Shown here piece by piece: positions 3,128 to 54,883 of a stretch of 64,000 bases of DNA; position 1 is the stretch's first letter; each line of letters begins with the position of its first letter. Made by a program: the position numbers and the translations under genes. The notes below the pieces were generated by a model. That model was not told where the DNA came from. It made no database searches and saw only the letters and a program-made list of their open reading frames with translations. Origin of the DNA: Thermoplasmata archaeon (GTDB taxonomy: Archaea > Thermoplasmatota > JASEFT01 > JBBABA01). The DNA is taken from contig JBBABA010000001.1 of assembly GCA_041657955.1 (NCBI GenBank), positions 40,578-104,577 on the forward strand, given 5' to 3'.

Positions 3128-6100
3128 ATGTTTAGGCGACCTGTTATTTTCGCAGCATTATGTGTCCTGTTGTGCCTCCTCCCAACCCCATCAGTGGCTG
3201 CTGTGAAAGCATATTCACCTCCTGCATCATATCATACTTTTTCCTCCATGGTCCAGGAACTTCAGAATCTGCAGGCAAGCCATCCGGACCTGGTGAAGAT
3301 GGAGAGCATAGGAAAGACTTGGGAAGGCCGGGATATTTGGGCTGTAAAAATTTCAGATGATGTGGCAACAAACGATTCTAGTGAGCCGGACGTGTTAATT
3401 TTCGGTGGTATCCACGCACGCGAAGTCATGGGAGTAGAGGTTCCCATGTATGTACTGAACTACCTGATAGACAAGTACGGCACGGACGAGGCGTGCACAA
3501 AATACGTCAACACAAGGGAGATATGGTTCGTGCCTATGATCAACCCTGACGGGCATGATTTTGTTGTCGTGCAGGATTACGACTGGCGCAAAAATCGGCG
3601 CCCGACAACAGGAGGAAACATCGGAGTGGACCTAAACCGAAACTGGGGGTATATGTGGGGCACGGACTCAGCTACCAGTTCGAATCCGGCGAGCGAGACC
3701 TACCACGGCCCGTATCCCTTCTCGGAGAGCGAGATAATAGCCCTACGCGATCTGTCACTCAGGCAGCGATTCGCCACATCCCTCTCATTCCATAGCTTTG
3801 GCGAATATGTACTGTTCCCCTGGGGGTATACCAACACCCATTGTCCGGACTATACCGAACTCAGCACGATGGCGAATGTGATGGCGGGCATGAACGGTTA
3901 CACCGCGATGCCAGCATATCAGCTATACGTCACGCATGGTGATTCGGACGACTGGTTATATGGTACCACCAGCACGAAGGCGTTCACAATCGAATTAGAC
4001 GACAGGTTCTATCCACCGGAAAGCTGGATAAGCGCCACCTGCATCCTAAACCGCGGACCGGTGCTATACCTCATAGGCTACCCGCATTCTCAGATTGCTG
4101 ATGCCGGAATATTCGGGCTTACCAGCCCCGCCAACGGAACGGCTATTGGATCAGACAGTGTTTTGAATGTCAACGCAAGGGTGATGAACTATGGCGATTC
4201 TGAAATTGATATTCCTGTAGAACTGGCGATCACCTCGCCGGAAGGCTATACCGATATAAACTCCACCACTGCACATTTGCGGGCGGGACAGGTGAAGGAT
4301 GTTGTTTTCTCATGGTCTCCCCCGTTCCCGGGAACAGAGAACTATACTTTGAGCGTTCGTACTAATCTTACGGGCGACGAATATTCCCGGAACGATTGGA
4401 AGAATTCTTCATTCAAAATCAAGGCAAAATACGGCGTAACCCTCAACGCCACAAATCTTTCACGCAGCGCGTTTCCAGGAGAATCCGTGAACTACTCTTT
4501 CCAGATGTTTAGCTCGAGCAATAGAGAAGACGACGTCCTATTAGCGAAGTCTGGCAACCATGCGGAATGGGTTTCAGCACCGTCTTCCATTCACATTCTG
4601 CCCGGCGGCCAAACCGAGATAAACATAAGCGTTTCCATTCCGAGAAACGCCTCCGCGGGGGGAACTGTTGTTGTTTCCATTGGGGCGCAATCTTCGACTG
4701 GAGAGGGTTCCCCTGCACTCCTCACCACTCGAACTACGATACTAGACGCCACCCCTACAGCCGATGCGGGGAATGACGTTCTAGCAAACATTAGTGAGTC
4801 ATTAGAGTTTGATGGTTCCGGTTCTTCTACGCCTATCGGCACAATATTGCGGTACGCCTGGGACTTTGGAGATGGCAACGGCAGCGAAGGCACAAAGGCG
4901 GCACATTCCTATGAAAAAGCAGGAGATTATACGGTCAAACTAATGGTGTTCAACGATTTGGATTTGCAGGGAAGCGATTATGTTAATGTCACTGTTCAGC
5001 AACTATTCAGGATAAATCTCTCTGCGGAATCCACAGATATAGCGATTGCACCTGACGAATCCGTCAAAGTTAATCTAAGTGTTGTGAACTCGGGTGATGG
5101 CTTGGATGCCGTTAATGTCGATTTAAGCGCTCTGATGTGGAACGCGTCTCTCGACACACGCTACACTTCACTGAACGCTGGGCAAAAGAAGATTATGACA
5201 TTAAACGTCACTGCTCCGGTCGATGCGTTAGCAAACGCTAAGGCACAATTCCAAATCACAACAACATCCGCGGGAAATCCTCTGGCGAAGAGTTCTGTTA
5301 CAATCACAGCTACAGTAAAAGAGACGCGAAACCTGGTGTCGAATATTTCAGAAAGCGCCATGACTGCAAATGCCGGAGACAACGCCACATTTTGGCTGAC
5401 GTTCAATAATTCGGGCAATGTCAAAGAGAAACTCCAGATGTCAGCCGAGGATTTGCCTAAAGACTGGAAGATACTGTTCTCTTCGGATGTGGCAACTGTA
5501 GGGCCGCGGAACACCACGAAAATAAAAGCAAACGTTTCCGTGCCGTCAGATGCTCTCGCAGGAAGATATGTGTTTGCGGTAAACGGCCAGCATCTGGAGG
5601 TAGTTATCAATCCAAAATATGGGTTTGAAGCCTCGGCAAAACAATCGGCAACTGCAGTTGTTTCCGGAGAGCGAGTCCTGTTCGAAGTCGTAGTAAAAAA
5701 CGCCGGCAACGCGCCTGACACCTATTTCTTAAACTTCACAGAATTGCCTGCGGGGTGGTCGATTGAAAATTCCGATGCGTTTATCGTGCCCCCTGGAGAA
5801 AATTATACAAAGAGTACAGGTGTCCGGATTCCGAGTGGCACAACGTCTGGCAAGTACAATTTGACGTTTCAAATCTGCTCAGCCAATTCTACCAATATCA
5901 TAAAAAATTTGACGTTCCAAATAGAAGTGTCTGAAACACCGGTGGATAATGAGATAGCAAGCGAGTCCGAGGGTTTCTTTTCATCTCCAATATTTATCAT
6001 GAGCGCGATAGCTATTTTAATCATCCTGTCTGCGGCGGGCATCGGAATATATTACGTTTCCTGGACTATCCGGAAGAGCGATTCGATGAGCCGACCGTCC

Positions 6101-6391
6101 GCGGGTAGGTCCGGCACACCACCCACGAACATAGCCGGTGCGCCACCGGCGAATATGCCCAGTACATCTGTGATGCCCCCGCCCGAAAAATATCAACCAG
6201 AGGGGCACCCACCAGGGCCCCCACAATCGCAGACCATACTCGTGCAGGATACATACGTACCGTGCTTCCAGTGCCGCATGCCTCTGAATAAAGGCGAGAG
6301 TGGAAGGCTCTGCCCATCATGCGGTGCTGTCTTCCATGAATACTGCGCACATGCTACCGAGAGGTGCCACAGGTGCGGATGGTTGTTTTGA
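3128..6391 (+). CDS. secreted multidomain M14 zinc carboxypeptidase with PKD domain, C-terminal TM helix and cytoplasmic zinc-ribbon tail
   Basis: signal peptide; M14 motifs (GGIHAREV, HSFG); PKD-like WDFGDGN segment; hydrophobic helix near C-terminus followed by Pro-rich stretch and Cys-rich ribbon (CFQC...CPSC...CHRC). Confidence 0.8.
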   Translation: MFRRPVIFAALCVLLCLLPTPSVAAVKAYSPPASYHTFSSMVQELQNLQASHPDLVKMESIGKTWEGRDIWAVKISDDVATNDSSEPDVLIFGGIHAREVMGVEVPMYVLNYLIDKYGTDEACTKYVNTREIWFVPMINPDGHDFVVVQDYDWRKNRRPTTGGNIGVDLNRNWGYMWGTDSATSSNPASETYHGPYPFSESEIIALRDLSLRQRFATSLSFHSFGEYVLFPWGYTNTHCPDYTELSTMANVMAGMNGYTAMPAYQLYVTHGDSDDWLYGTTSTKAFTIELDDRFYPPESWISATCILNRGPVLYLIGYPHSQIADAGIFGLTSPANGTAIGSDSVLNVNARVMNYGDSEIDIPVELAITSPEGYTDINSTTAHLRAGQVKDVVFSWSPPFPGTENYTLSVRTNLTGDEYSRNDWKNSSFKIKAKYGVTLNATNLSRSAFPGESVNYSFQMFSSSNREDDVLLAKSGNHAEWVSAPSSIHILPGGQTEINISVSIPRNASAGGTVVVSIGAQSSTGEGSPALLTTRTTILDATPTADAGNDVLANISESLEFDGSGSSTPIGTILRYAWDFGDGNGSEGTKAAHSYEKAGDYTVKLMVFNDLDLQGSDYVNVTVQQLFRINLSAESTDIAIAPDESVKVNLSVVNSGDGLDAVNVDLSALMWNASLDTRYTSLNAGQKKIMTLNVTAPVDALANAKAQFQITTTSAGNPLAKSSVTITATVKETRNLVSNISESAMTANAGDNATFWLTFNNSGNVKEKLQMSAEDLPKDWKILFSSDVATVGPRNTTKIKANVSVPSDALAGRYVFAVNGQHLEVVINPKYGFEASAKQSATAVVSGERVLFEVVVKNAGNAPDTYFLNFTELPAGWSIENSDAFIVPPGENYTKSTGVRIPSGTTSGKYNLTFQICSANSTNIIKNLTFQIEVSETPVDNEIASESEGFFSSPIFIMSAIAILIILSAAGIGIYYVSWTIRKSDSMSRPSAGRSGTPPTNIAGAPPANMPSTSVMPPPEKYQPEGHPPGPPQSQTILVQDTYVPCFQCRMPLNKGESGRLCPSCGAVFHEYCAHATERCHRCGWLF

Positions 6392-7294: not shown

Positions 7295-9049
7295 TTAGGT
7301 TTTTCTCTTCCTTAACGCGCATGAACAGATACCGACAAGCGGCAAAAGCAACGCAAATTCAAATCCGGGTATGAAGAAACTATCTACCTGCCCGGTCTTT
7401 ACGACTATAGAATCCTTTCCTTCTTTGCCAGAATCGTCAATCACCCTGAATACTGCGCGGTAGACACCGTTTTTTGGATACGTGTAATACACTTCTCCCG
7501 TGGTTGTGGAGTTCCAATCATACATGCCGTCGCCGTCAAAGTCCCATTGATAGTAGATTATTTTTCCGTCGGTGTCCGTGCCTTCGCCGTAGAAATGTAT
7601 TGTTGTGTTTCCTCCGACCGCTATGTCTCTCCCTGCGTTTGCGACCGGCGGTTTCTTGTTCGGATCAAGGTCGCCTATGATTATAGGAATTTTTGATGTA
7701 TCCGCGCTTATTGTCCCTTCGTTGTCCATTACTCTCAGCGAGGCTTCGTATCTCCCGCTGCGGGTGTATGTGTAGCGCGCACTTGGTAAAGTGGTCCATC
7801 CGCTATCAGTGCCGTCGCCGAAAATAAAGATGTATTTTTCAACAGCGCCGTCATTGTCCGTAGATTCCAAGCCATAAAAAGTAACAGATTTTCCTACATC
7901 GGCAACTACCGTATTCACTGTCAGCACGGGTTTCGGTCTTTGATTTGGATACTTCAAGACTTTGCCGCTGGTGCCGACGATTAGGGCATAGCCATTGTAA
8001 TCGCCGCCATACTCGCCCGTATATGGCCTCCAGGATACGGAGTACAAATCCATGTCCATTTCCGTGGATAGTGTTTCGATCGAGCTCTCGTTGCCGTATC
8101 TCAGTACGGTTCCCTTTTCTCCGACAATAATCGCGTATTCGCCGTCCGGTTTCCAGGAAATCTTGGTTAACTGCGTATTTTTCCATGCTACATCCGCATA
8201 TTTTGTTGAATCTACAGCTGTTTTTGTCTTGTAAGTGTTGCCGTCGTATTTCAGTATAACACCCCTGCTGCCCACAATGATCCCGTAATCGTCGTTTGGC
8301 CTCCAGGATATGCTTTGCAGCCAACTGTAACCCGCGGCAGCATCTATATTATACGAAATGTCTGAAAAACTGCTGGAGTAGTATCTCAATACAGTTCCGG
8401 AGTAACCGACACAAACAGCGAACGTGCCTCTTCTGCTCCATGCGATGCCGTGTAAATCGTCTGTCGTACCACTCTTAAACGATAGGTTTTGCACTTCTAC
8501 ACCATTGTATGTAAGCACAGAGCCGCTGTAGCCTACAATCATAGCATAAGTGCCGTCAGGAGACCAGGTAATGCTTCGCAACATGCTGCTGGTTCCGTTT
8601 TTAATAAACTCGCTTGAAAGATTCGTTATAGTGTCTGTCGCATTATCGTATCTCAAGATTGCTCCAAGATAGCTCTTCGCCTTATAGTCACCTACAATCA
8701 GCGCATAATCTTCGTATGGCGACCATGCAACATCATACAAATCGAAGTTCGAGTAATTGACAGATCCGTTTACCGTGGTGAACGCGCTACCATCATATTT
8801 CAAAATCGTGCCGTTGTTGCCAACGACCAGCGCGCAACTGCCGTCGGGTTTCCATGAAACTCCCCGGAGTGTATTTGTTGTCCCCGTGGAGATGACTGCT
8901 TTGTTGTCATAATCTACGAACGCCAAATCATTGTTATCCGCACGAACTGGTACTGTACTCAATAGTGGTGTCAGTATGAAAGTAAGTACGATCGCCCCTG
9001 CGAGCAGTCTTTTTTTCATGTTAATTTCTTCAGCCGCTTCCTTTTTCAT
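7295..9049 (-). CDS. surface protein: PD40-like beta-propeller repeats + PKD domains + PGF-CTERM anchor
   Basis: signal peptide (probable start at M11, 9019); ~8 repeats of W-x-PDG-x-YA-x-IVG; two PKD-like segments; C-terminal ...IPGFEFALLLPLVGI...RKRKT. Confidence 0.7.
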   Translation of the reverse strand: MKKEAAEEINMKKRLLAGAIVLTFILTPLLSTVPVRADNNDLAFVDYDNKAVISTGTTNTLRGVSWKPDGSCALVVGNNGTILKYDGSAFTTVNGSVNYSNFDLYDVAWSPYEDYALIVGDYKAKSYLGAILRYDNATDTITNLSSEFIKNGTSSMLRSITWSPDGTYAMIVGYSGSVLTYNGVEVQNLSFKSGTTDDLHGIAWSRRGTFAVCVGYSGTVLRYYSSSFSDISYNIDAAAGYSWLQSISWRPNDDYGIIVGSRGVILKYDGNTYKTKTAVDSTKYADVAWKNTQLTKISWKPDGEYAIIVGEKGTVLRYGNESSIETLSTEMDMDLYSVSWRPYTGEYGGDYNGYALIVGTSGKVLKYPNQRPKPVLTVNTVVADVGKSVTFYGLESTDNDGAVEKYIFIFGDGTDSGWTTLPSARYTYTRSGRYEASLRVMDNEGTISADTSKIPIIIGDLDPNKKPPVANAGRDIAVGGNTTIHFYGEGTDTDGKIIYYQWDFDGDGMYDWNSTTTGEVYYTYPKNGVYRAVFRVIDDSGKEGKDSIVVKTGQVDSFFIPGFEFALLLPLVGICSCALRKRKT

Positions 9050-9110: not shown

Positions 9111-10889
9111 TCATTCCCTTTTCATAAACGAACCCTTCGGGAGGATTTTGTGGATTCTGTTTTGGATTTTCTTTTTTGCCGCATCAACAAATAGAATCAG
9201 CGAAACAATGCATAAGAGCGCAAGAATATCAAAGGCGGGTAGGAACCATCCTCCAGTTTCGCCGGCCTCTACGATAACCGTGTCCTTTGCGATGCCCCCG
9301 TTGTTATCAGTTACTCTGAAAACAGCACGATATGTACCGTTCTTTGGATAAGTATATGCTGCATTTCCCGTAGTTGTAGAATTCCAATCATATTTGCCGT
9401 CGCCGTCGAAATCCCATTGGTAGTAAACAATTCTTCCATCGGCGTCTATTCCCTCACCATAAAATTGTAAGCTTTTGCCACTCATTACCTTAATGTCCGG
9501 TCCTGCCTTGGCGGAGGGAGGTTTGTTGGTCGAATCTACGACTCCGACGATGACGGGTATTACCGCAACATTTGTGCTATATACATCCTTGTCGTCCCTG
9601 ACCCTAAGCGACGCGTTGTATCTTCCGACTGTATCGTATGCGTGGGTGGTCGCTGGATTGGCCATCCATCCGCTGTCAGTACCGTCACCAAACTCAAAAC
9701 AATATTGCCGAACGGCTCCGTCCGGGTCTCTTGAGTTGTAGCCATAGAACGTAACTATTCGCCCCTGGTTTGTCACCACGTCGTCAATAGTAATTTCTGC
9801 GATTGGCCTCTGATCTGGATACCTAAGCACCAAACCGTCGGTACCTGCTATAACCGCATAGCTCCCATTATACTCCCAAGACACACTGTGTAGGTCGGAA
9901 CCTATCTGCGTAGAAAGAGTTTCAAATTGGACAGGAAGAGACTCGTTGTATTTTATGACGAGCCCGTTGTCTCCCACTATGAGGGCGTATCCTTGGTATC
10001 CGTCCAAATCCGGGCGTTCGTCGGGCTTCCAAGCGATATTTCTCAATGTAGTAAATCTCCCAGCGCCTGCGTATTTTGTTGTGAATATTGTGCCGTCATA
10101 CTTAAGGATTGTTTCGTGTGTGCCGAGTATAAGTGCATATTCCCCGTCCGGGGACCATGTTACAGCCAATAGATCTTGGTCCGTCCTTCCTAGTAGTTCT
10201 ACACCACTCGTGAGGTTTGTGAATTCCTTATTTTTATCGTCGAATTTTATGACAGTACCCTTGTTCCCGACAATTAGTGCATAGCTGCCGTCTGGTTTCC
10301 AAGCGACGCTGGACAAATAAACGGTTTTGTCTTTTATAAACGTGAATCTCGTCTGGTTGTTGTCTGTCCTCGATGGATCAAATGCGGAGATGTGCCCCTC
10401 ATCGCCGACAAGCAGGGCGTAGCTGCCGTCGGGTTTCCATGCGGCGCCACGAATCGTGTTCGGGGTGTCGTGGGTGATAGGCACGTAAGAAACATTTGTG
10501 AGATTGCTGCCATCGTATCGGTATATGGAACCGTACTCCCCAACAATTAGCGCGAAGTCGCCCTGCGGTCGCCATGCTACTGCGTGCCAGTTAAACGCGA
10601 CGCCGAGATCGACTGGGATAAATCCGTTGTCCGTGCATTTTAGCACAGTCCTATCTCCAACAATGAGCCCGTACCTTGCCTTCGGTTTCCAATCTACTGC
10701 ATTGAGTGTTCTGTTTGTATTTGTGGGTGGCAAGGTCGCATCCAGAGGTTGAACACTGTAATGCACAACAAATGCAGGTCCATTGTCGTTTTGGGCACAA
10801 TTATTTGTAGGCAAGAAATTCAAAATCAGCAAAAGCATAACGAAGACGGCAAATATCGACGGTGTTTTTATGAACTTTTCCATTTTCAA
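9111..10889 (-). CDS. surface protein paralog: PD40-like beta-propeller repeats + PKD domains + PGF-CTERM-like (PAF) anchor
   Basis: same architecture as 7295..9049; C-terminal LPAFDILALLCIVSLILF followed by basic tail. Confidence 0.7.
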   Translation of the reverse strand: MKMEKFIKTPSIFAVFVMLLLILNFLPTNNCAQNDNGPAFVVHYSVQPLDATLPPTNTNRTLNAVDWKPKARYGLIVGDRTVLKCTDNGFIPVDLGVAFNWHAVAWRPQGDFALIVGEYGSIYRYDGSNLTNVSYVPITHDTPNTIRGAAWKPDGSYALLVGDEGHISAFDPSRTDNNQTRFTFIKDKTVYLSSVAWKPDGSYALIVGNKGTVIKFDDKNKEFTNLTSGVELLGRTDQDLLAVTWSPDGEYALILGTHETILKYDGTIFTTKYAGAGRFTTLRNIAWKPDERPDLDGYQGYALIVGDNGLVIKYNESLPVQFETLSTQIGSDLHSVSWEYNGSYAVIAGTDGLVLRYPDQRPIAEITIDDVVTNQGRIVTFYGYNSRDPDGAVRQYCFEFGDGTDSGWMANPATTHAYDTVGRYNASLRVRDDKDVYSTNVAVIPVIVGVVDSTNKPPSAKAGPDIKVMSGKSLQFYGEGIDADGRIVYYQWDFDGDGKYDWNSTTTGNAAYTYPKNGTYRAVFRVTDNNGGIAKDTVIVEAGETGGWFLPAFDILALLCIVSLILFVDAAKKKIQNRIHKILPKGSFMKRE

Positions 10890-21572: not shown

Positions 21573-22328
21573 TTGTCTATCGGAGAATACCTTTATAAAC
21601 GGCCATTTCCTTATGTTTTTTCGATGTTCAGAGAAACAATCGAAGGACTCGACCAAATCTTTGAAACTGATATTAAGACAAGAAAGACACTCCTGGTGCT
21701 GGGTGGCGGCGGGACGCTTAAAACAAGTTTTGTATACAATCTTCTATCGCTCCATCTCGCGAAGACAGGAGAGGTCGCATTATATATCACGCTGGAAGAA
21801 AGCGAGGAAAGCATACTGGAGAATATCAGATCTATAAACGCGCCTATTAGCAACAACATTCATATTGTGGATTACAACATTCTTAGATCGCAGTTCAAGG
21901 ATAAGGAAAAGGACCTGGAATTCGCGTATGTTTTGGAAACATTAATGAACTCGTTTAAAAAAGAGTACCCCGACAAATTCAGGTACTTGGCGTTAGACTC
22001 GCTCGGTGCGTTATATTCGTTGATAAAAATTTCAGACGCCAGGTCAGACATATACCACTTCTTTAATACATTAAAGGATTTGAGCTTAACCGGATTCATA
22101 ATCGCAGAAGAAACAGTTGCCGAACAGGGCAAGTTCGGTTATGAGGATTTCCTAACCGATGGAGTAATCACGCTGGGCTTGGTGGAAATAGAGGGACAGG
22201 TAAAACGATACATGCAGGTGAAAAAGATGCGCACCGTAAAGCACCAGATGGACAAATTTGAGATGGCAATCGGAGACAACGGGCTCACGATTGTCGGGCC
22301 ACTTTTCTCTGAAGCGGGATCTTCGTAG
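21573..22328 (+). CDS. KaiC/RadA-like RecA-superfamily ATPase domain protein with atypical P-loop
   Basis: single KaiC-like domain; Walker A region reads LGGGGTLKTS (no Gly before the Lys). Confidence 0.65.
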   Translation: MSIGEYLYKRPFPYVFSMFRETIEGLDQIFETDIKTRKTLLVLGGGGTLKTSFVYNLLSLHLAKTGEVALYITLEESEESILENIRSINAPISNNIHIVDYNILRSQFKDKEKDLEFAYVLETLMNSFKKEYPDKFRYLALDSLGALYSLIKISDARSDIYHFFNTLKDLSLTGFIIAEETVAEQGKFGYEDFLTDGVITLGLVEIEGQVKRYMQVKKMRTVKHQMDKFEMAIGDNGLTIVGPLFSEAGSS

Positions 22329-26276: not shown

Positions 26277-29200
26277 ATGGCAGGCAAATCATTGTGCCAA
26301 AAGCATTATATCTCAGTAGCAGCGTATTTTATAAGTGGCATGCACGAATCAAAAATAAAGACGCAATTAAGCGCAATGTTTGTTGCATCGATACTAGCTA
26401 TATCTGTGCTTGTTGTTAGCGTTAGCTATATCTCCATATCTATGTCTATAAAAAATAGCGATGAGAAAAGAATTGATTTTTATGATGTAAACGGAAACAA
26501 GATAGAAGACGTGTTGGAGAATGTTGTTGCAAACAAACAGGAGAACGAAACCGTAAAAGCGATAGTTTCATTCAACAACAAGGACAACAACCATCACTTG
26601 AACGATTTTGAAGCTATAGGCGCAAAAATTTTGTTTGATTATCAGATAATAAACGGAATTGCCATAGAGCTTCCTTGCAATAACCTGACAAAGATACCAA
26701 ATATTGGGGATGTAGAATACGTCGAGCTCGACCGTGAGTATCGCATCCAATATAATGAAAATGATGCCGAGCTAGACCGCGAATACCGCACCCTGCTTAA
26801 TGACAAAGTCCAGTTGATAGACGCTGACCCGCCCACACTTCAAAAGTATGGTTATGGAGATATCACGGGATGGGGCGTAACAATCGCAGTCATAGACACC
26901 GGAATAGATCCAACCCACGAATCACTAGATGATATGGACGATAACCCTGCTACAACTGACCCAAAAGTTATCGGCTGGTATGATAATGTAAACCATAGGA
27001 CATCTGCTTATGACGACCAAGGGCATGGAACACATTGCGCTGGGATATGTGCGGGCACAGGAGGGCCATCACATACATACCGGGGTGTAGCTCCGGGGGC
27101 GAAATTGGTCGGCGTTAAAGTCATGAACAGCCAGGGTGGTGGCACAGAAAGCACGATGATTGACGGCCTAAACTGGATTATAAACAATAAAGGCAAGTAT
27201 AACATAAGAGTAATCTCGATGAGCTTGGGGCTGCCTTATTATATGGCGGCTATGGCTGGGATGCCATTAAACGGAAAGTCGACCATCGACAAGGCCGCAA
27301 CTGCCGCAGTAAACGCGGGGTTAATATTTGCCGTGGCTGCGGGTAATTCTGGCCATATGGATGTGCAGGGAAACCGCCTAATAGTTACAGAACCGCTTAA
27401 AGAAACCATAGGCCCGCCCGCTACATGCGAAGATGTGATAACTGTTGGAAGCAATTTTCTTTCCGGGAGTGACACGGGCGTAGATTTTTATTCCAGTAGG
27501 GGGCCGACATCGGACGGCAGAACAAAGCCCGACGTCGCGGCACCTGGTACAGACGTAATGGCTCCAAACGTCAACACCAAGACCGGTTATGTAAGGCACT
27601 CTGGCACCTCGATGGCCTGCCCAATGGTTGCTGGTTCTGCAGCGCTTGTTATAAATTATTATCTGAATGCTACGAAAGGGTATGAAAATTACTATCCGCA
27701 AACGACGGGGGGGCTCCCAATGCCTACAAACGCACAGGTAAAAAAACTTCTAGGAGAACTCACGGCAATCGACCTTTTTCCATACAGCGAACCAGGTAAG
27801 GATAACGACACAGGCTGGGGGTTGATAGATGTAAGCGAGGCAATGAACGCAATAAACTTTTTACCTATCGCAAAGGCAACAGCTAACACCACAACCGCGG
27901 TTGCCGGTGAAACAATAACTTTTACGGCTAAGGACACAACAGACATAAACGGTCCAAGGTCACGAGCTGTTTATATGTGGGATTTCGGAGACCAGTATGC
28001 GGACCCGGCAACAAACCCGAATAAGGATTGGTACATGAACACGAGCCACAAATTTACGCGCGGCGGCACGTACACAATAACACTGACAATCACAAACATC
28101 AAGGAAGCCACCTACAGCGAACCAGACGATTTTAAAAAGGCCAACACATGGGACGTCGGGGTTTCAGGCATCAACACCAAATCGATTCAAATAACGATTC
28201 TAAACAGCCCTCCGGTCGCTGTTATAAACAAAGTGAATTTCGCAAGCGACATTGTTCCGACAAATCAGCAGACTTCTTTCGACGCATCGCAATCCTATGA
28301 TAATGACACGAGCACTCCAAACAATCCTCTGCAGTATAAGTGGGCATTTGGGGACGGTTCATCTACTGATTGGGCAAGTTCGCCTACTGCACAGCACACG
28401 TATGTGACCAAAGGCACATACAACGTCGTCTTAACAGTGAAGGATGATGCCGACGCCACGGCCACAGACACCATGACACTAAAGGCGACGAGTCCTCCAG
28501 CCGCAGTACCCGGGCCTAGTCAAACCGTTAAGACAAACGAAGTTGTTTATTTTAACGGTACAGGAACAGACAGCGACGGCTCGATCGCCAAATATTTGTG
28601 GGATTTCGACGGCGACGGCACGTATGATTGGGAGTCTACAACCACAGGAAAGACAACGCATACTTACCAGCACAAAGGAGCGTATGACGCCGCCTTTAAG
28701 ACAATAGACGACATGGGCGCAGAAACAATCACCAAGGTAAAAATAAACATCGAAAACACGCTGCCTGTGCCGATAGTTAAAATAACGAAATCGAACGTTA
28801 CTTACCCAGGCGACACCGTACGTTTTGATGCATCCAGCTCTTACGACACAGACACCCACACACAGCAAAACCCAATATCATTCAAATGGATATTTGGCGA
28901 CGGTGCGACCTCTACCGACGCAGCCACCAACCACATCTATCAGGACAACGGCATATATAATTTGACACTCCAAATAACCGATGACGATTTTGGAATTACA
29001 ATTTATCGACAAAATTTAACAATACTGAACAAAAAACCCATAGCGACAATAGACGAGAATACGCGCCTGACAAACATAACAACAGCAAACAGCGGAGAAG
29101 AGATTTTATTTACATCGCCTAGCGCGTACGACCCTGACACCCATACGCCAAGCGCCCCGATAACTTACCAATGGGACTTCGGCGATGGGAATATCGGATA

Positions 29201-31058
29201 TGGCAAAAATGCAAGACATATTTTTGCGCACAAGGGCAACTATCTCATCAACCTGACAATACTTGACGATGACAACGAAAGCGCAGAAGTCAACCTCACA
29301 ATAAATATCACAATAAATAATAGAAAACCAGCTGTCGACACAGCAAACATCACACAGATGGCGAACATCACCGAAATAACAAGCGGTCAATCAATATCTT
29401 TTACGGCTCCAAACGCAACAGATATAGATACCCACGCATCAGGCAATCCGATAATTTACCAATGGAACTTCGGCGACGGGTGCATAGAGATTGGTAAAGA
29501 AATCGCACACACTTTTGCGCACGGCGGCAATTACAATGTTGTTCTAACAATACTTGACGATGACAACGAAAGCGCAGAAGGCAATTTCACAACGAATGTT
29601 ATTGTAAATAATAGAAAACCAATAGTTAATGTGACTGATACCACGCAGATAGTGAGCGCAAGCGAAACAAAAAGCGGACAATCGATAGCATTTACAGCGC
29701 CGAACGCAACAGACCCCGACACTAACACATCAGATAATCCAGTAACTTACCTATGGGATTTCGGCGATGGAAGTACTAGTGCGGAGAAAACCCCAAATCA
29801 CACCTACAATAAAAGCGGCTTCTTTAATGTGACATTGAAGATAATCGACGATAGTAACGAAACCGTAGTTAAATACATACCAATCCAGATATTAAACACG
29901 CCCCCGCTAGTCAGTAATGTGAGCGCGCCGAAGGCGGGGGACGCAGGCAAAGGACTTTCTTTTGCCGCAAATTGTGCGGATGCCGACGGGGCGATCGTGG
30001 ATTACATATGGGATTTCGGCGACGGCACAACCGAAAAAGGTTCCGAAGTTACCCACGTGTATAAGCGAGGAGGCGCGTACACGGTTACGTTAATCGTTAC
30101 AGATAACGAAGGGGGCGTGACGAACACAACCACAACAGTCAACGTCAGCGGGACGATTGGGGATGTTATCGGTATACCTCTAGATGGAGTCACACTCATT
30201 CTGTTTATTGTGCCGATTATTGTCCTGGTGTGTGTAGCAGTAGTCTATTCTAGAAGACGGGGAAAACGAAAAGAGAAGGAAGCACCGGAAGAAGAGAAAC
30301 CAAAAGAAACACCGGAATCAACAAAAGGAACTGCAGCAACACAAATGTTGGGTGGTGTAGATGGGCACAATGAAAGTTTACCACTTCCAGGGTACCCCGC
30401 GGGAGAGCGGCAGCAAACAGGATATCCCGCATACGGACAGACTGATGCCCAAGCGGCGGATGCTGGGTGGCGGCCGCAGCATATACCGCCGGCACAACCA
30501 GGATATGGAAGTGAAGAAGCAATAGGAAGAGAAACGCAACAGGCACCGGTAGGGCCAGAAGGAAGAAAATCTGTTTATGATGCATACGGCCAGCAGCTAG
30601 ACGCGAGAAAATCCGCGAAACCTGCGGCAACGGCTACACAGACAAGATGCCCCAAATGCCGTTACTCCATATTGGTCACATCGCCCGAGAGGCCAATCAA
30701 GGTGCACTGCCCGAAGTGTGGCACAGTGGGCATATTAAAACAAAAACCAACACAAAAAACACCCGTACCAGAGCAACGCTACGAAACGCCTCCGAGAAAA
30801 CCCGCGCTGGGGACGGTGCAGAAACAGGCAGAAAGACAGCATGGCTATGAACAGCCGCCCGCAAAAAAATCCATACTGGATGGGATGAAGAAAGGGCCGG
30901 AAGGAAAACCTCTTGTAAAAAAACAATCACAAACTAGCACCAAAAACTGTCCAAGATGCCAAACACCAATAGTTATAACCCAGAGCACAAGACCGCTTAC
31001 TATAACCTGCCCGAGTTGCGGGCTTTCATGCGTTCTGCGCAAACAAAAAACCTTATAA
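26277..31058 (+). CDS. secreted subtilisin-like serine protease (S8) with ~8 PKD-like domains, C-terminal TM helix and cytoplasmic tail with two zinc ribbons
   Basis: catalytic triad motifs VIDTGID, HGTHCAG, GTSMACPMVAG; repeated WDFGDG PKD cores; TM LILFIVPIIVLVCVAVV; tail with two CPxC-x17-CPxC ribbons; start may be Met22 or Met34. Confidence 0.85.
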   Translation: MAGKSLCQKHYISVAAYFISGMHESKIKTQLSAMFVASILAISVLVVSVSYISISMSIKNSDEKRIDFYDVNGNKIEDVLENVVANKQENETVKAIVSFNNKDNNHHLNDFEAIGAKILFDYQIINGIAIELPCNNLTKIPNIGDVEYVELDREYRIQYNENDAELDREYRTLLNDKVQLIDADPPTLQKYGYGDITGWGVTIAVIDTGIDPTHESLDDMDDNPATTDPKVIGWYDNVNHRTSAYDDQGHGTHCAGICAGTGGPSHTYRGVAPGAKLVGVKVMNSQGGGTESTMIDGLNWIINNKGKYNIRVISMSLGLPYYMAAMAGMPLNGKSTIDKAATAAVNAGLIFAVAAGNSGHMDVQGNRLIVTEPLKETIGPPATCEDVITVGSNFLSGSDTGVDFYSSRGPTSDGRTKPDVAAPGTDVMAPNVNTKTGYVRHSGTSMACPMVAGSAALVINYYLNATKGYENYYPQTTGGLPMPTNAQVKKLLGELTAIDLFPYSEPGKDNDTGWGLIDVSEAMNAINFLPIAKATANTTTAVAGETITFTAKDTTDINGPRSRAVYMWDFGDQYADPATNPNKDWYMNTSHKFTRGGTYTITLTITNIKEATYSEPDDFKKANTWDVGVSGINTKSIQITILNSPPVAVINKVNFASDIVPTNQQTSFDASQSYDNDTSTPNNPLQYKWAFGDGSSTDWASSPTAQHTYVTKGTYNVVLTVKDDADATATDTMTLKATSPPAAVPGPSQTVKTNEVVYFNGTGTDSDGSIAKYLWDFDGDGTYDWESTTTGKTTHTYQHKGAYDAAFKTIDDMGAETITKVKINIENTLPVPIVKITKSNVTYPGDTVRFDASSSYDTDTHTQQNPISFKWIFGDGATSTDAATNHIYQDNGIYNLTLQITDDDFGITIYRQNLTILNKKPIATIDENTRLTNITTANSGEEILFTSPSAYDPDTHTPSAPITYQWDFGDGNIGYGKNARHIFAHKGNYLINLTILDDDNESAEVNLTINITINNRKPAVDTANITQMANITEITSGQSISFTAPNATDIDTHASGNPIIYQWNFGDGCIEIGKEIAHTFAHGGNYNVVLTILDDDNESAEGNFTTNVIVNNRKPIVNVTDTTQIVSASETKSGQSIAFTAPNATDPDTNTSDNPVTYLWDFGDGSTSAEKTPNHTYNKSGFFNVTLKIIDDSNETVVKYIPIQILNTPPLVSNVSAPKAGDAGKGLSFAANCADADGAIVDYIWDFGDGTTEKGSEVTHVYKRGGAYTVTLIVTDNEGGVTNTTTTVNVSGTIGDVIGIPLDGVTLILFIVPIIVLVCVAVVYSRRRGKRKEKEAPEEEKPKETPESTKGTAATQMLGGVDGHNESLPLPGYPAGERQQTGYPAYGQTDAQAADAGWRPQHIPPAQPGYGSEEAIGRETQQAPVGPEGRKSVYDAYGQQLDARKSAKPAATATQTRCPKCRYSILVTSPERPIKVHCPKCGTVGILKQKPTQKTPVPEQRYETPPRKPALGTVQKQAERQHGYEQPPAKKSILDGMKKGPEGKPLVKKQSQTSTKNCPRCQTPIVITQSTRPLTITCPSCGLSCVLRKQKTL

Positions 31059-31110: not shown

Positions 31111-31884
31111 ATGGATGAAATATCACTAGCAGTTGGAGTAATAGGGCTAGTCGTGGGGCTAGTTGCGTTGTTGATAGTCTATCTCCAAGTTATACAAAAA
31201 GCCCTGCCTTCCTTGAGAAATAACCTGACCACAACTAACGAAAGACTCGACAGGTTCGAAGCGGTCCTTACGCAAAAGACTGACTTTACGATAGATGAAT
31301 TGTTTGAATCGATAAAAACATCCACTATAATCAGGGAAAGAATCGCCGAGGGGCTGGAAGAGAACACATATACGATCGAGGGCGGAGACCAGATTTTCCA
31401 GAAAGCGCTCTCCATGTTGAGGGACGCAAAGAAGAGCATATTGTCAATCTGGTGTTTGCCGAGCGAGGAGCCGCCGAAATGGTATAGCGAAACCATAGAA
31501 GAAAAAATCAAAGAAGGCGTGCAGATCACCCGCCTGATGAACCTCAGAAATCCTGCGATACGGGCCAATGCTATAGAGTTGATGAAGAAATTCTACAATG
31601 TAAAGAATTTCGCCATATATCACACAGATCAAACAAGTTCGGAAACAATGATAGTGGACGACAGGCAGGCGATTATTACATTCCCGACCGCGGAACAGAT
31701 CTCGAACATCAATTCTGCAGTATACACCGACAACCAAAAGTTCGTAAACGCAATCAGGGCATGGTACCAGCAGTACATATATACAGAAAAGAACAGGATC
31801 AAGAGCGTAAACGACATAATGAAGTATTCTGAGCAGGCGAGCAAAACAGCAGAAGCAACAACAGAGACAAAACCGGCAGAGTAA
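31111..31884 (+). CDS. membrane-anchored hypothetical protein
   Basis: N-terminal TM helix; 257 aa; immediately downstream of the S8 protease. Confidence 0.45.
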   Translation: MDEISLAVGVIGLVVGLVALLIVYLQVIQKALPSLRNNLTTTNERLDRFEAVLTQKTDFTIDELFESIKTSTIIRERIAEGLEENTYTIEGGDQIFQKALSMLRDAKKSILSIWCLPSEEPPKWYSETIEEKIKEGVQITRLMNLRNPAIRANAIELMKKFYNVKNFAIYHTDQTSSETMIVDDRQAIITFPTAEQISNINSAVYTDNQKFVNAIRAWYQQYIYTEKNRIKSVNDIMKYSEQASKTAEATTETKPAE

Positions 31885-33344: not shown

Positions 33345-33833
33345 TCAAACCTCTCCCACCTCAATATACGGAATCACAGTATTTGACGTCACGTGAGTCA
33401 ATTTTAAATTATGTGCGCCGGCAGACAACGTAAACGTGGCGTTATCGTTTGATGCAAGTCTCAGATCGCTCTTCAAAATATATCTCTGCTCATCGCTTCC
33501 AGAAAACTTGTACCTGATTACGCTGCCGTACGTGCCGTTTATTGCGTCACCGATCTTCACGTATTCGATGGTGCTGAACGCATTGTTCTTGAATTCCACA
33601 GTCACTGGTAGGGATGTTCCGCCCCCGCCGTTGGATACTTGCCTTGCTGTTGTCTCTATCCTGCTGAATTCGTTTATCAGCATGGTTTCAGCCTGTGTTT
33701 TCGAATAAGTGGAAAGCCCGTATAACGCTATAGGGATTGTCATGCCAGCGACGATAACAACTAATATCAATCTAAGGGGAAGACCTTCAATACCATCATT
33801 ATTTTTGTAAAAGTTCAAGAGATCACCATACAC
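33345..33833 (-). CDS. pilin-like protein with N-terminal GIEGLPL + hydrophobic segment (class III signal-peptide-like)
   Basis: N-terminus NNDGIEGLPLRLILVVIVAGM, then Ser/Thr-rich beta-type domain; paralog at 54370..54819. Confidence 0.5.
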   Translation of the reverse strand: MYGDLLNFYKNNDGIEGLPLRLILVVIVAGMTIPIALYGLSTYSKTQAETMLINEFSRIETTARQVSNGGGGTSLPVTVEFKNNAFSTIEYVKIGDAINGTYGSVIRYKFSGSDEQRYILKSDLRLASNDNATFTLSAGAHNLKLTHVTSNTVIPYIEVGEV

Positions 33834-33946
33834 TTTTACTTTAAATATAATTATATTTTATTATTATGCCTCATCATGCTTTTAATTTAATCAATTTAAT
33901 GCTGGACTGTTTAACGCCGCGATTCACAAACACTCGGGGCAACGTG

Positions 33947-36042: not shown

Positions 36043-37983
36043 TCACCGTTTACCTTTAGGTTTTCTTAACACAACATATGCGAGGATTAGGATAATTATG
36101 AGGAATACGAAAATACTTAGAATGCCCTTGGGGCTGTCAATCATACACAACTCTTCGCTGACACCTATAATTCCGGCGGCAACCAACGCGGCCACCACTA
36201 CACCGGTTATCGCCTCGCCTGCAATCAAGCCCGAGCTGAAAAGAACACCGCGGCTATAGGTCTCATCCTTTTCTGCGTTGCATTTTTCGAGCTCCTTTGT
36301 TTCAGCGCGGGTCATCCTTTCTTTCTGGGTTGTGGTGGTAAATCCAGTTTCTATCTTCCTATCCACGAAGTGTTTTATGCCGCCGCCTATCAGGATAGGT
36401 ATGGATAAGGTAAAAGGAAGGTACATGCCCACAGCTATTGCCATTACTGGTTTTCTGAGTATTATAAACAAGATTCCGAGCTCTACACCCATCAGGAAAT
36501 ACGGCCAATTCATCGTGCCTCCGAATATGCCGTTTGTCACCATTGCCATAAGACCTGCCTGGGGGGCGGGTAGGGCTTTGCTTCCAAATGTGTAAGCTGC
36601 GCTTAAGACACCGAGAACAGGGGGTATGATAATCGCGGAGACTATGACGCCGATCATCAGGGCTATCTGCAGGTTTCTGGGAGTGGAGCCCAAAAGATAC
36701 CCGGTTTTAAGATTCTGAAGGTTGTCGCCTGCTATTGATGCTGCACAACAAACTATCGCGGCTACAAGAATAGTTGCCGACGCGCCTACCGCGCTCGGCA
36801 CCCCCAGCGCTACAAGCAAAAGTGCGGTAAATATCAGCGTTGCGATTGTTACGCCAGATATTGGGTTGTTTGAACTGCCTATGATCCCTGCCATATACCC
36901 CGCTATCGCCGAGAAAAAGAATGCGGCGATGACCATGATGATCGATGTTACGAGAGCTACTGCGAAAGTCTGCAGTACATACCAATACATCAAAAAGATG
37001 CAGACACTTATCAAGCCCGCGAGAATAAACGTAAATGCAGTCGGAAGGTCCAGTTCAGTCCTGATAACCTTTTCCTTATCCTTGGACTTGCTGCCGCCTA
37101 TTACGCCTCGGACGCCTTTTGTTATTGCGTTTCTCATGCTCCATATCGCAGAAAGGCCGCCGACAATCATAGCGCCTATGCCTACATAACGTACCCGATC
37201 ACTCCACACAATTGTAAGCGCGTCTACGGGATTGTCTGCAAGCGGAAGGCCGTTAGCTAAGACTACCAACGGAACCAGGAGCATCCAAGCGATTACGCCG
37301 CCCAAAAAAACGAAAAACGCTATGCTGGGCCCCACTATGTAGCCCACGCCCAGCAGCGCAGGGGACAGGTCGCTTCCAAAATAGAAATATGCCCTGCCCG
37401 CGCCTATCGCTTGTTCGACTTTGCCGGAAAGAGCTTTCATTCCTGAAGATATAAACTTAAAAACAACCCCGATGACTAGCGCCGAAAGGACGTATGTTAT
37501 CTGCTTTCCGCCCCGCTCTCCTGCCTTAAGTATCTCTGCGCACGCTATACCCTCAGGATAAGGCAGCTTCATTTCTTGTATGAGTATCTTCCGAAGCGAG
37601 ATAGTGAAAAGTACGCCTAAAAGTCCGCCCAGCGCGGCCACAACAGATACTGTAATGTAGTCAATCTCATGCCATACTCCCATTATGAGAAGCGCGGGAA
37701 TAGTGAATATGATGCCTGCAGCGAGTGCTTCTCCGGATGATGCTATAGTCTGGGCGATGTTATTTTCGAGTATGGTACCTGTCTTAAACAATCCTTTGAG
37801 TATCGCCATGGATATTACAGCTGCCGGTATCGTCGCCGCCACTGTCATGCCCGCATAAAGCCCAAGATAGGCGTTTGCAGCAGCCATGACAACCGCTAAA
37901 ATTACGCCGAGAAGAATGGCACGTACAGTCAATTCAGGTATGGTTTTTCCTGGAGGTATATAAGGAACAAACTTCACCATCAC
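36043..37983 (-). CDS. OPT-family oligopeptide transporter
   Basis: 646 aa, ~16 predicted TM helices, OPT-family organisation. Confidence 0.8.
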   Translation of the reverse strand: MMVKFVPYIPPGKTIPELTVRAILLGVILAVVMAAANAYLGLYAGMTVAATIPAAVISMAILKGLFKTGTILENNIAQTIASSGEALAAGIIFTIPALLIMGVWHEIDYITVSVVAALGGLLGVLFTISLRKILIQEMKLPYPEGIACAEILKAGERGGKQITYVLSALVIGVVFKFISSGMKALSGKVEQAIGAGRAYFYFGSDLSPALLGVGYIVGPSIAFFVFLGGVIAWMLLVPLVVLANGLPLADNPVDALTIVWSDRVRYVGIGAMIVGGLSAIWSMRNAITKGVRGVIGGSKSKDKEKVIRTELDLPTAFTFILAGLISVCIFLMYWYVLQTFAVALVTSIIMVIAAFFFSAIAGYMAGIIGSSNNPISGVTIATLIFTALLLVALGVPSAVGASATILVAAIVCCAASIAGDNLQNLKTGYLLGSTPRNLQIALMIGVIVSAIIIPPVLGVLSAAYTFGSKALPAPQAGLMAMVTNGIFGGTMNWPYFLMGVELGILFIILRKPVMAIAVGMYLPFTLSIPILIGGGIKHFVDRKIETGFTTTTQKERMTRAETKELEKCNAEKDETYSRGVLFSSGLIAGEAITGVVVAALVAAGIIGVSEELCMIDSPKGILSIFVFLIIILILAYVVLRKPKGKR

Positions 37984-54369: not shown

Positions 54370-54819
54370 TTAAGTACTAGATCTCACAACCAATATTGTA
54401 GTCGTCTTAGTGGTTTTCCCCCAGGTGCTGTCATACTGCGCTTCCACAGTTATCGTTCCTGTGTTTATATTCGCAGGTAATGTGGAGGTCACAACAAAGT
54501 ATGCTGAGCCGTTACTCTCTGTTCTCTTCGCAGTGTCTGAACCACAACCAGTCAATGTGATTATCGCATTGTTAAGTGCCTTTCCGTTCTGGTCTAGTAC
54601 TGTCACAATGAAACTATCTGTCGAGTTGCCGACAACTTTCGACACGGTTATTGTATCTGGTTTTACAGTAATGCTTCCAACTTCCGTCTTGCTAAAACTC
54701 ATCCAACCTACAACAATCCCGATTCCTACGCCCGCTATGATTACCATTATCAGTAGTTGCAATGGCAAGCCCTCGATAGCACCGCTATCGTTCGCTCTAA
54801 ATTTCATTAATTTTTTCAT
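54370..54819 (-). CDS. pilin-like protein with N-terminal GIEGLPL + hydrophobic segment (paralog of 33345..33833)
   Basis: N-terminus DSGAIEGLPLQLLIMVIIAGVGIG; Thr-rich beta-type domain. Confidence 0.5.
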   Translation of the reverse strand: MKKLMKFRANDSGAIEGLPLQLLIMVIIAGVGIGIVVGWMSFSKTEVGSITVKPDTITVSKVVGNSTDSFIVTVLDQNGKALNNAIITLTGCGSDTAKRTESNGSAYFVVTSTLPANINTGTITVEAQYDSTWGKTTKTTTILVVRSST

Positions 54820-54883
54820 AATTCACCTTGCGAGAGTATTATCAAATTGATATTTAAATATAACCACACTTTTAGTATGTTCA

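Follow-up and report, generated by a model that had tools for sequence, protein, structure and literature searches.

Here, we describe two small genes, termed A and B, in a 64,000-nucleotide stretch of the genome of a Thermoplasmata archaeon (contig JBBABA010000001.1, positions 40,578 to 104,577). This whole stretch, in the following called the window, is archaeal, has 44.5% GC and is rich in housekeeping genes. A and B appear to belong to a conserved Thermoplasmata trio of small bitopic surface proteins, encoded in the order B-A-C, of which they are the two members with a leader. The initial annotation had reported two open reading frames (ORFs) with a common motif, and ORF calling on the window recovers both on the minus strand, at 33345..33833 (A) and 54370..54819 (B); all features of A and B given below lie on this strand. 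According to the ORF call and its homologs, gene B (54370..54819) encodes 149 amino acids (aa), and no Pfam family matches it at threshold. Gene A, assigned to Pfam family DUF7311, extends mechanically to a GTG at 33833, which gives 162 aa. Its closest homologs (P0002/P0003) have 157 aa, and their start corresponds to a TTG at 33818, five codons after the GTG. Because the homologs begin there and a Shine-Dalgarno-like site is found just upstream, TTG 33818 is probably the start of A, so that the gene would cover 33345..33818 and encode 157 aa. This site, GGTGATC (33821..33827), lies 2 nt upstream of the TTG and reads as a good match to an archaeal site. A comparable one, GGTGA (54823..54827), is read 3 nt upstream of the ATG of B at 54819.

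The N-termini of the two proteins, MNFYKNNDG-IEGLPLRLILVVIVAGMTIPIALYGL... in A and MKKLMKFRANDSGA-IEGLPLQLLIMVIIAGVGIGIVVGWM... in B, are clearly similar. BLASTP aligns the first ~50 residues only (42% identity, E 1e-9), and a comparison of both families with hhalign (96% probability, E 3e-9) is confined to 41 N-terminal columns. After the putative cleavage point, A and B are identical at 14 of 30 residues. Judged by these alignments, the similarity is far beyond chance. The pattern E-[GAS]-[LIVMF]-P-[LIVMF] occurs six times in the six-frame translation of the window, and only the copies in A and B are followed by a hydrophobic stretch. In A, the conserved module IEGLPLRL and the hydrophobic helix cover residues 10-36 (33711..33791), the segment that hhalign relates to B. 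The counterpart in B, IEGLPLQL plus helix, covers residues 15-42 (54694..54777) according to alignment A5 and the hhalign comparison with A. Within the module, E and P are invariant and L is near-invariant in the A-type alignment A2. The B-type alignment A5 has E16, G17, L18, P19, L20, L22, I24, V26 and A29 invariant, with the consensus D-x-x-G-G|I-E-G-L-P-L-Q-L. Across the family, a basic leader and D-x-x-[G/A] are followed by [I/L/V]-[E]-[G/S/A/D]-[L/I/M/F]-P-[L/M/F]-[K/R/Q]-L and the hydrophobic helix, and this module is conserved among proteins that share only ~35% identity elsewhere. Going by the profile comparison, A and B are homologous only across the N-terminal ~41 residues, while their ectodomains are unrelated. 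The two proteins had been called paralogous, which holds for this segment and not for the full length.

The resemblance to class III (prepilin-type) signal peptides, suspected in the initial annotation, is supported by the layout seen across the families. The putative leader of A, MNFYKNNDG (33792..33818), has 9 aa and a net charge of 0, with Asp at position -2 and Gly at -1 of the presumed cleavage site. That of B, MKKLMKFRANDSGA (54778..54819), has 14 aa and a net charge of +3, with Ala at -1 and an uncharged Gly at -2. Leaders are short throughout (median 9 aa, interquartile range 9-11, n=188). A small residue (G/A/S) occupies -1 in 117 of 124 representatives, as well as in 58/58 A-type and 65/65 B-type proteins of the genome loci described below. 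Position +1 is hydrophobic, Glu stands at +2 in 88/124 representatives and K/R/Q at +7 in 116/124. In both window proteins, a hydrophobic helix of ~20 residues follows the site, with Glu +2 and Lys/Arg/Gln +7 within its first turn(s). An alignment of homologs had been proposed as a check, and it shows just this near-invariant small residue at -1 together with a conserved E-G-L-P-L module. For archaeal class III sites, the published rule asks for G/A/S at -1 and a charge at -2, where Asp is allowed, as in D-A|V-S of Haloferax PilA1 (PMC4371748, Pohlschroder & Esquivel review). Window protein A (D-G|I-E) fits this rule, window protein B (G-A|I-E or S-G|A-I) does not. The earlier remark that the sites lie outside the classic context is therefore correct for B, read as S-G-A|I-E, and not for A.

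Behind the helix, the two proteins carry different domains. In A, DUF7311 (PF23993) is found at residues 20-151 with 32.1 bits (gathering threshold 27). B has no DUF7311 match, its best Pfam Ig-like matches are sub-threshold (Big_1, 22.8 vs 34.9 bits), and an NCBIfam search gave nothing. The AlphaFold2 (AF2) model of A, with a predicted local distance difference test (pLDDT) score of 80, consists of a disordered leader, a continuous 52-residue helix (13-64) and an 8-strand β-domain. The amphipathic continuation of the helix, an invariant G-x-G and the external β-domain occupy 33348..33710 (pLDDT 84-93; alignment A2), a part that holds two N-x-S/T sequons. For B, the model (pLDDT 82) has a 23-residue helix (20-42) followed by an Ig-like domain, a Ser/Thr-rich β-sandwich at residues 47-146 (54382..54681). 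Ser and Thr make up 19.8% of the ectodomain in A and 31.1% in B, in good agreement with the earlier description of a hydrophobic stretch before Thr/Ser-rich β-type domains: each model shows one helix and one β-rich domain. A is free of Cys, and the only Cys of B lies in the ectodomain. The pilin-like layout of an N-terminal helix with a β-rich head is thus present in A; in B, the helix is short (23 residues) before the Ig-like domain. Both proteins had been described as secreted. What their sequences support instead is a membrane anchor with an external domain.

Relatives of A and B are found side by side in other genomes. A pattern scan over one genome per species returned 67 loci, all from Thermoplasmata, Methanomassiliicoccales or related metagenome-assembled genomes; a metagenome scan returned only two short loci. 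By ORF clustering, a B-type gene is present in 67/67 loci, and in 63/67 an A-type gene lies directly downstream on the same strand. A third, C-type gene (~155 aa, M-D-F-V-V-S-K-V-A-M-S-I-C-A-L-L...) clusters in 38/67 loci. By inspection, Methanomassiliicoccus-type loci have a divergent C-type gene (M-I-E-F-V-M-S-R..., M-E-F-F-L-S-K...) which overlaps the stop codon of A. Locus L069 is an annotated example, with B (no Pfam), A (DUF7311, weak) and C (no Pfam) in this order. A 359-aa multi-zinc-ribbon (DZR-type) protein is encoded at L069:8734-9813 (minus strand), there divergently upstream of the B-type gene, and has equivalents ahead of the triad in other loci. Beyond the triad, sufS/nifS, iscU, pyrD and pyrK are conserved neighbours, and this neighbourhood is a case of vertical synteny. 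Window protein A scores 114 bits against a hidden Markov model (HMM) of the A-type proteins from 58 genome loci, and window protein B scores 106 bits against the B-type HMM (65 loci). By these scores, both are clear orthologs of the triad members. In the window genome, A and B are separated by 20 kb, unlike the tandem B-A arrangement elsewhere, and no C-type gene was found in the 64 kb by HMM or relaxed regular expression. A 257-aa protein without Pfam match (31111-31884, plus strand) has a hydrophobic helix from residue 3 (MDEISLAVGVIGLVV...); it is encoded on the opposite strand at a distance of 1.5 kb from gene A and gives no match to the C-type HMM.

The C-type protein is made without a leader. 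A Shine-Dalgarno-like GGAGGTG precedes the gene, in 28/37 loci a canonical start codon stands directly before D-F, and in 4 loci in-frame stops are found 2-4 codons upstream. The start M-D-F-V-V-S-K has an acidic +2 and a basic +7 residue, as do the predicted mature N-termini of A and B; this likeness in pattern is suggestive only. Since hhalign detects no homology between A and C, the C-type protein cannot be called a paralog. Among the A-type homologs, about 12 representatives are likewise called without a leader (M-E-G-x-P-L...). We did not accept them as proof of position +1, as they are probably mis-called starts: in the single case examined, L078, an AGAGGT site goes with an in-frame ATG 23 codons further upstream.

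Word-indexed homolog searches reached close relatives only (3, 12 and 62 proteins), and of 1.84 billion representative clusters, 260 matched the A-type profile in an exhaustive HMMER search. Several of the matches are proteins of 723-2201 aa, in which the A module stands at the extreme N-terminus and is followed by FG-GAP or CARDB regions. Giants of 1087-2201 aa with FG-GAP_3 or CARDB are encoded at L073:1651-6903, L074:3089-9694, L075:6677-12109 and L078:725-3988 (probable start 656). In L073 and L074, a B-type gene, a small A-type gene and the giant follow in a row, and in divergent sub-groups B again lies directly upstream of A. As the A module forms, in other lineages, the N-terminal base of these FG-GAP/CARDB giants, the fusions suggest a module that serves as anchor and assembly base for surface display. 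One further protein, P0102 (641 aa, Cys-rich, eight tandem repeats), aligns with the A profile in the hydrophobic part only ('PLPLRLLVVCCV'); this match is almost certainly spurious and driven by composition. A literature search for DUF7311 returned no papers. As far as the literature searched shows, the B-type and C-type families, the shared module, the B-A-C order and the giant fusions are undescribed.

In one divergent sub-group, with the motif G-[VI]-[SA]-D-[IM]-P-M-R-L-L..., an FtsZ-like gene lies directly upstream of an A-type/DUF7311-like gene (L082:1685-2698, L076:9015-9944, L083:730-1629 and L077:3-452, all on the plus strand). The FtsZ-like protein matches M. jannaschii FtsZ1 (phmmer, E 1.3e-8), and 49/49 of its PDB matches are FtsZ. 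It has a degenerate T4 loop, 'EGSTGVAG', and no Pfam match at 0.01. The pairing is kept in 4/4 loci despite only 38% identity among the copies and different outer flanks. Next comes a conserved gene on the minus strand (58% identity).

A search for pilus machinery, which had been suggested as a check, gave a negative result in the sequences covered. No A24 (prepilin) peptidase, PilB/ArlI (T2SSE-type) ATPase or T2SSF/TadC/ArlJ platform protein is encoded in the window, and in the annotated homolog contexts no A24 peptidase, T2SSE-type ATPase or T2SSF/TadC platform was seen. Six-frame translations of 79 sequences around the loci (1.17 Mb) contain no T2SSE Walker A motif (TGSGKTT-type). The loci were also screened for PF07790-like class III proteins as a proxy for the peptidase; none were found, and the screen is uninformative on the peptidase itself. 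The window carries a stand-alone, single-domain KaiC-family ATPase (PF06745, 120 bits; 21573-22328, plus strand) without adjacent arl or pil genes. The KaiC family also includes ArlH of the archaellum.

How far A and B resemble known pilins was examined by sequence and by structure. Pfam yielded no pilin or class III family, even at E <= 10. When the A profile was compared with PDB sequences, six of the ten best sub-threshold matches were α1 helices of type IV pilins (best E 0.016). In these alignments, the Lys/Arg at +7 of the family stands opposite pilin Glu5, and an A-Y motif opposite Tyr27 of geopilin. Foldseek with the model of A found nothing in the PDB at E<=0.001. Fold similarity to solved pilins is weak, and no solved pilin, the 2025 Thermoplasmatales pilus included, gives a significant structural match. 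We read these results as an architecture shared with pilins and possibly as remote homology of α1, not as proof of it.

Archaeal class III proteins and type IV pilins (Haloferax PilA1-6, Sulfolobus Aap/Ups, Methanococcus Epd; substrates found by FlaFind) are among the most similar known groups. They share with A and B a short basic leader, Gly or Ala at -1 before a hydrophobic helix, the architecture of a helix plus a β-domain, and small gene clusters that may be distant from the machinery. Their N-terminal helix is conserved despite different β-rich ectodomains; a shared module on unrelated ectodomains, as in A and B, is what pilins of one system show. They differ in that A and B carry [ILV]-E-G-L-P-L-[KRQ]-L, with an acidic +2, Pro +5 and basic +7, instead of the motif of PF07790, PF04021 or PF01917, none of which matched. 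The charge at -2 is inconsistent, no ATPase of the type IV filament (TFF) type is linked, and in much of the host lineage there is none according to the literature. Bacterial modular and minor pilins and pseudopilins of type II secretion systems (S. sanguinis PilB, PilE1, FimU, EpsI/J) have an N-methylation-type motif (G|F-T-L-I-E) which A and B lack. Here, the Lys/Arg opposite Glu5, the archaeal host and the lack of a GspE/PilB partner among the genes found are further differences. ArlF/ArlG (FlaF/FlaG) are likewise an adjacent pair of bitopic proteins of ~150 aa that combine an N-terminal hydrophobic helix with a β-sandwich ectodomain, and are thought to form a short membrane-anchored assembly rather than the main filament. 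A and B, however, lie outside any archaellum operon, their hosts are non-motile and without arl genes (M. alvi), and neither Pfam nor fold comparison gives a match. Sulfolobus bindosome-type binding proteins also have a class III-like N-terminus on surface-display proteins without a dedicated filament; the ectodomains of A and B are small Ig-like and DUF7311 domains, not solute-binding ones, and the motif is different. The Pfam family DUF7311 itself covers A above threshold, and close homologs of A carry a precomputed match. It is a domain of unknown function which does not cover the B-type and C-type proteins or the shared module.

Our preferred interpretation, to which we give slightly less than an even chance, is that A and B resemble pilins, are probably processed by a peptidase and form a membrane-anchored hetero-oligomer or pseudopilus-like stub which displays the Ig-like and DUF7311 domains. 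Following the sequence, each protein would be inserted with the short basic leader in the cytoplasm and the β-rich domain outside. A class III signal peptidase would then probably cut at [G/A]|[I/L/V], so that the mature protein starts with [ILV]-E-G-L-P-L-[K/R/Q]-L and the hydrophobic helix. The near-identical helices of A and B, perhaps with that of the leaderless C-type protein, would pack in or just above the membrane and give a short pseudopilus-like stub or anchored hetero-oligomer on a cell without wall or S-layer. The uniform short leader, the small residue at -1, a helix that is near-identical across unrelated ectodomains and the reuse of the module in giants all argue for class III substrates that interact via their N-terminal helices. 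A long ATPase-driven pilus is neither required nor supported by the data. Several points weigh against this interpretation. Archaeal prepilin peptidases are said to depend critically on a charge at -2; such a residue is found in only 41-48% of A-type and 3% of B-type proteins (51% of the latter with the site moved by one residue). The beginning of the hydrophobic domain is interrupted by the charged residues at +2 and +7, and class III cleavage as such is predicted from sequence. The lack of a Pfam pilin or class III match also counts here, as do the predicted 23-residue helix of B, whose modelled ectodomain is a generic Ig fold, and the C-type protein, which is assigned to one complex with A and B because of gene order alone.

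Three other interpretations have to be weighed against such a processed stub or oligomer. The initial annotation had considered a variant pilin or surface-filament subunit; its strongest form makes A and B bona fide TFF/type IV pilus subunits, with cleavage by PibD/ArlK, a PilB/ArlI ATPase and TadC/ArlJ platform encoded elsewhere, and an extended filament. A or B would then serve as the major pilin and the others as minor pilins, with the giant A-fusions as modular tip adhesins. Both a true pilus and a stub are in agreement with the class III-like and lollipop features, and clusters of paralogs which share the N-terminus and include a giant resemble pilin gene clusters. Distance from the machinery has precedents: the pilins of Cuniculiplasma (Thermoplasmatales) are located ~500 kb from theirs (PMC12448462), those of Haloferax are supplied in trans (Makarova 2016; PMC4371748), and a 2026 census found many class III proteins in genomes with a peptidase but without a TFF locus (bioRxiv 10.64898/2026.04.22.720090). 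The Methanomassiliicoccus genomes analysed, however, are without secretion ATPases (VirB11 family, type IV pilus), with 0 in every ATPase clade for Ca. M. intestinalis (Makarova 2016, supplementary file 9), and the triad is present across the Methanomassiliicoccales. In M. alvi, archaellum genes and an S-layer are lacking and no pili have been reported, only unexplained fibrillar appendices. Moreover, conservation, synteny and a single copy set the family apart from typical major pilins, which evolve fast. Because the machinery is missing from the window and the 79 loci, the genes behave like core genes and no pilin fold is matched, a conventional extended pilus is unlikely. The pilin idea thus stands for the layout of the N-terminal module and its α1-like matches, and is opposed by the missing machinery and the weak fold similarity. 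These arguments, together with the class III-like features, lead us to favour the processed membrane-anchored stub or oligomer.

It is also conceivable, although somewhat improbable, that A and B are uncleaved signal-anchor proteins (N-in, C-out). D-x-x-G-[ILV]-E-G-L-P-L-[KRQ] would then be a cytoplasmic juxtamembrane docking motif and B-A-C a housekeeping envelope complex, e.g., for division or shape, built like the bitopic FtsQ/L/B trio of bacteria and without relation to pilins. The near-universal, single-copy cassette in synteny with housekeeping genes (sufS, iscU, pyrD/K) is in agreement with this, as are a motif whose conservation far exceeds that of known class III cleavage contexts, the often broken -2 rule, the occurrence in lineages without TFF ATPases according to the literature, and the divergent FtsZ homolog directly upstream of an A-type-like gene in 4/4 loci of one sub-group. 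The FtsZ linkage is, however, confined to that small sub-group and absent from the 67 main loci and the window, and no docking partner was identified. A uniform 9-residue leader with a near-invariant small -1 residue is not expected of a generic signal anchor either, and the leaderless C-type protein starts where mature A and B would, with the same charge pattern at +2 and +7. Very improbable is an ordinary Sec (signal peptidase I), Tat or lipoprotein secretion signal with an incidental similarity of the motif. A basic N-terminus before a hydrophobic segment would agree with it, and in one A-type sub-family the helix ends in small residues (P-A-A-x-A-L). Yet alignments A1, A2 and A5 show neither a conserved twin-arginine motif nor a family-wide A-x-A site, window proteins included, and the Cys content noted above leaves no lipobox Cys. 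The hydrophobic stretch has transmembrane length and in the model of A runs on as one helix into the ectodomain. Furthermore, the motif in the n-region is the best-conserved part, which a discarded Sec signal leaves unexplained.

In the window, A is flanked by genes for an M20 peptidase and AMMECR1, and B by MCM and a radical-SAM gene. Upstream of both, at 33840..33850 and 54853..54863, an identical TATA-like element, TTATATTTAAA, is found. This 11-mer has two exact copies in the window, one per gene and none elsewhere, with 0.18 expected. We do not take it as a sign of co-regulation of A and B, as the element was picked post hoc and is not enriched if one mismatch is allowed (6 copies vs 3.1 expected); from its sequence it is probably a generic TATA-like promoter box. 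Large secreted or anchored proteins are encoded at 3128-6391 (plus strand), 7295-9049 (minus), 9111-10889 (minus), 26277-31058 (plus), 38897-41647 (minus) and 36043-37983 (minus). The secreted or anchored set includes an M14 carboxypeptidase with PKD/NEW3, two paralogous β-propeller + PKD proteins, an S8 subtilase with 8 PKD domains and a C25-like peptidase, and the window also carries an OPT oligopeptide transporter and M20/M29 peptidases. A window so rich in peptidases suggests a protein-degrading lifestyle. Finally, 48161-48553 and 48540-48857 (both minus strand) hold an overlapping pair of HEPN (PF05168) and nucleotidyltransferase (PF01909) genes, the usual arrangement of an MNT-HEPN toxin-antitoxin system.

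From a biological point of view, A and B belong to a known kind, the class III or pilin-like surface proteins; their novelty lies in the motif, in the conserved trio and in machinery that is apparently absent. The finding would become truly unexpected only with processing in genomes that are really devoid of every TFF component, or with an FtsZ link that proves general. Should cleavage at [GA]|[ILV]-E-G-L-P-L be confirmed, the class III repertoire widens, and FlaFind-type rules would miss the B-type and more than half of the A-type proteins. The interpretation would also provide a first functional hypothesis for DUF7311 and add two partner families that are not in Pfam. To our knowledge, a cell wall and an archaellum are absent from Methanomassiliicoccales and related Thermoplasmata, an S-layer is often absent too, and by the published census they also lack ATPases for type IV pili. 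With little likelihood, the B-A-C triad might even be an 'orphan' pilin-derived system, a core feature of wall-less archaea without known TFF ATPase or platform, which acts as a so far unknown ATPase-independent surface assembly or as a module co-opted into an envelope or division complex. A hint at the latter is the conserved juxtaposition of a divergent FtsZ and an A-type-like gene in one sub-group. In the former case, an ATPase-independent, membrane-proximal structure would organise the naked surface and anchor giant adhesins. The way in which these archaea organise and decorate their surface bears on how methanogens such as Methanomethylophilus colonise the gut, and the triad is a concrete candidate for a complex that organises this surface or anchors adhesins to it.

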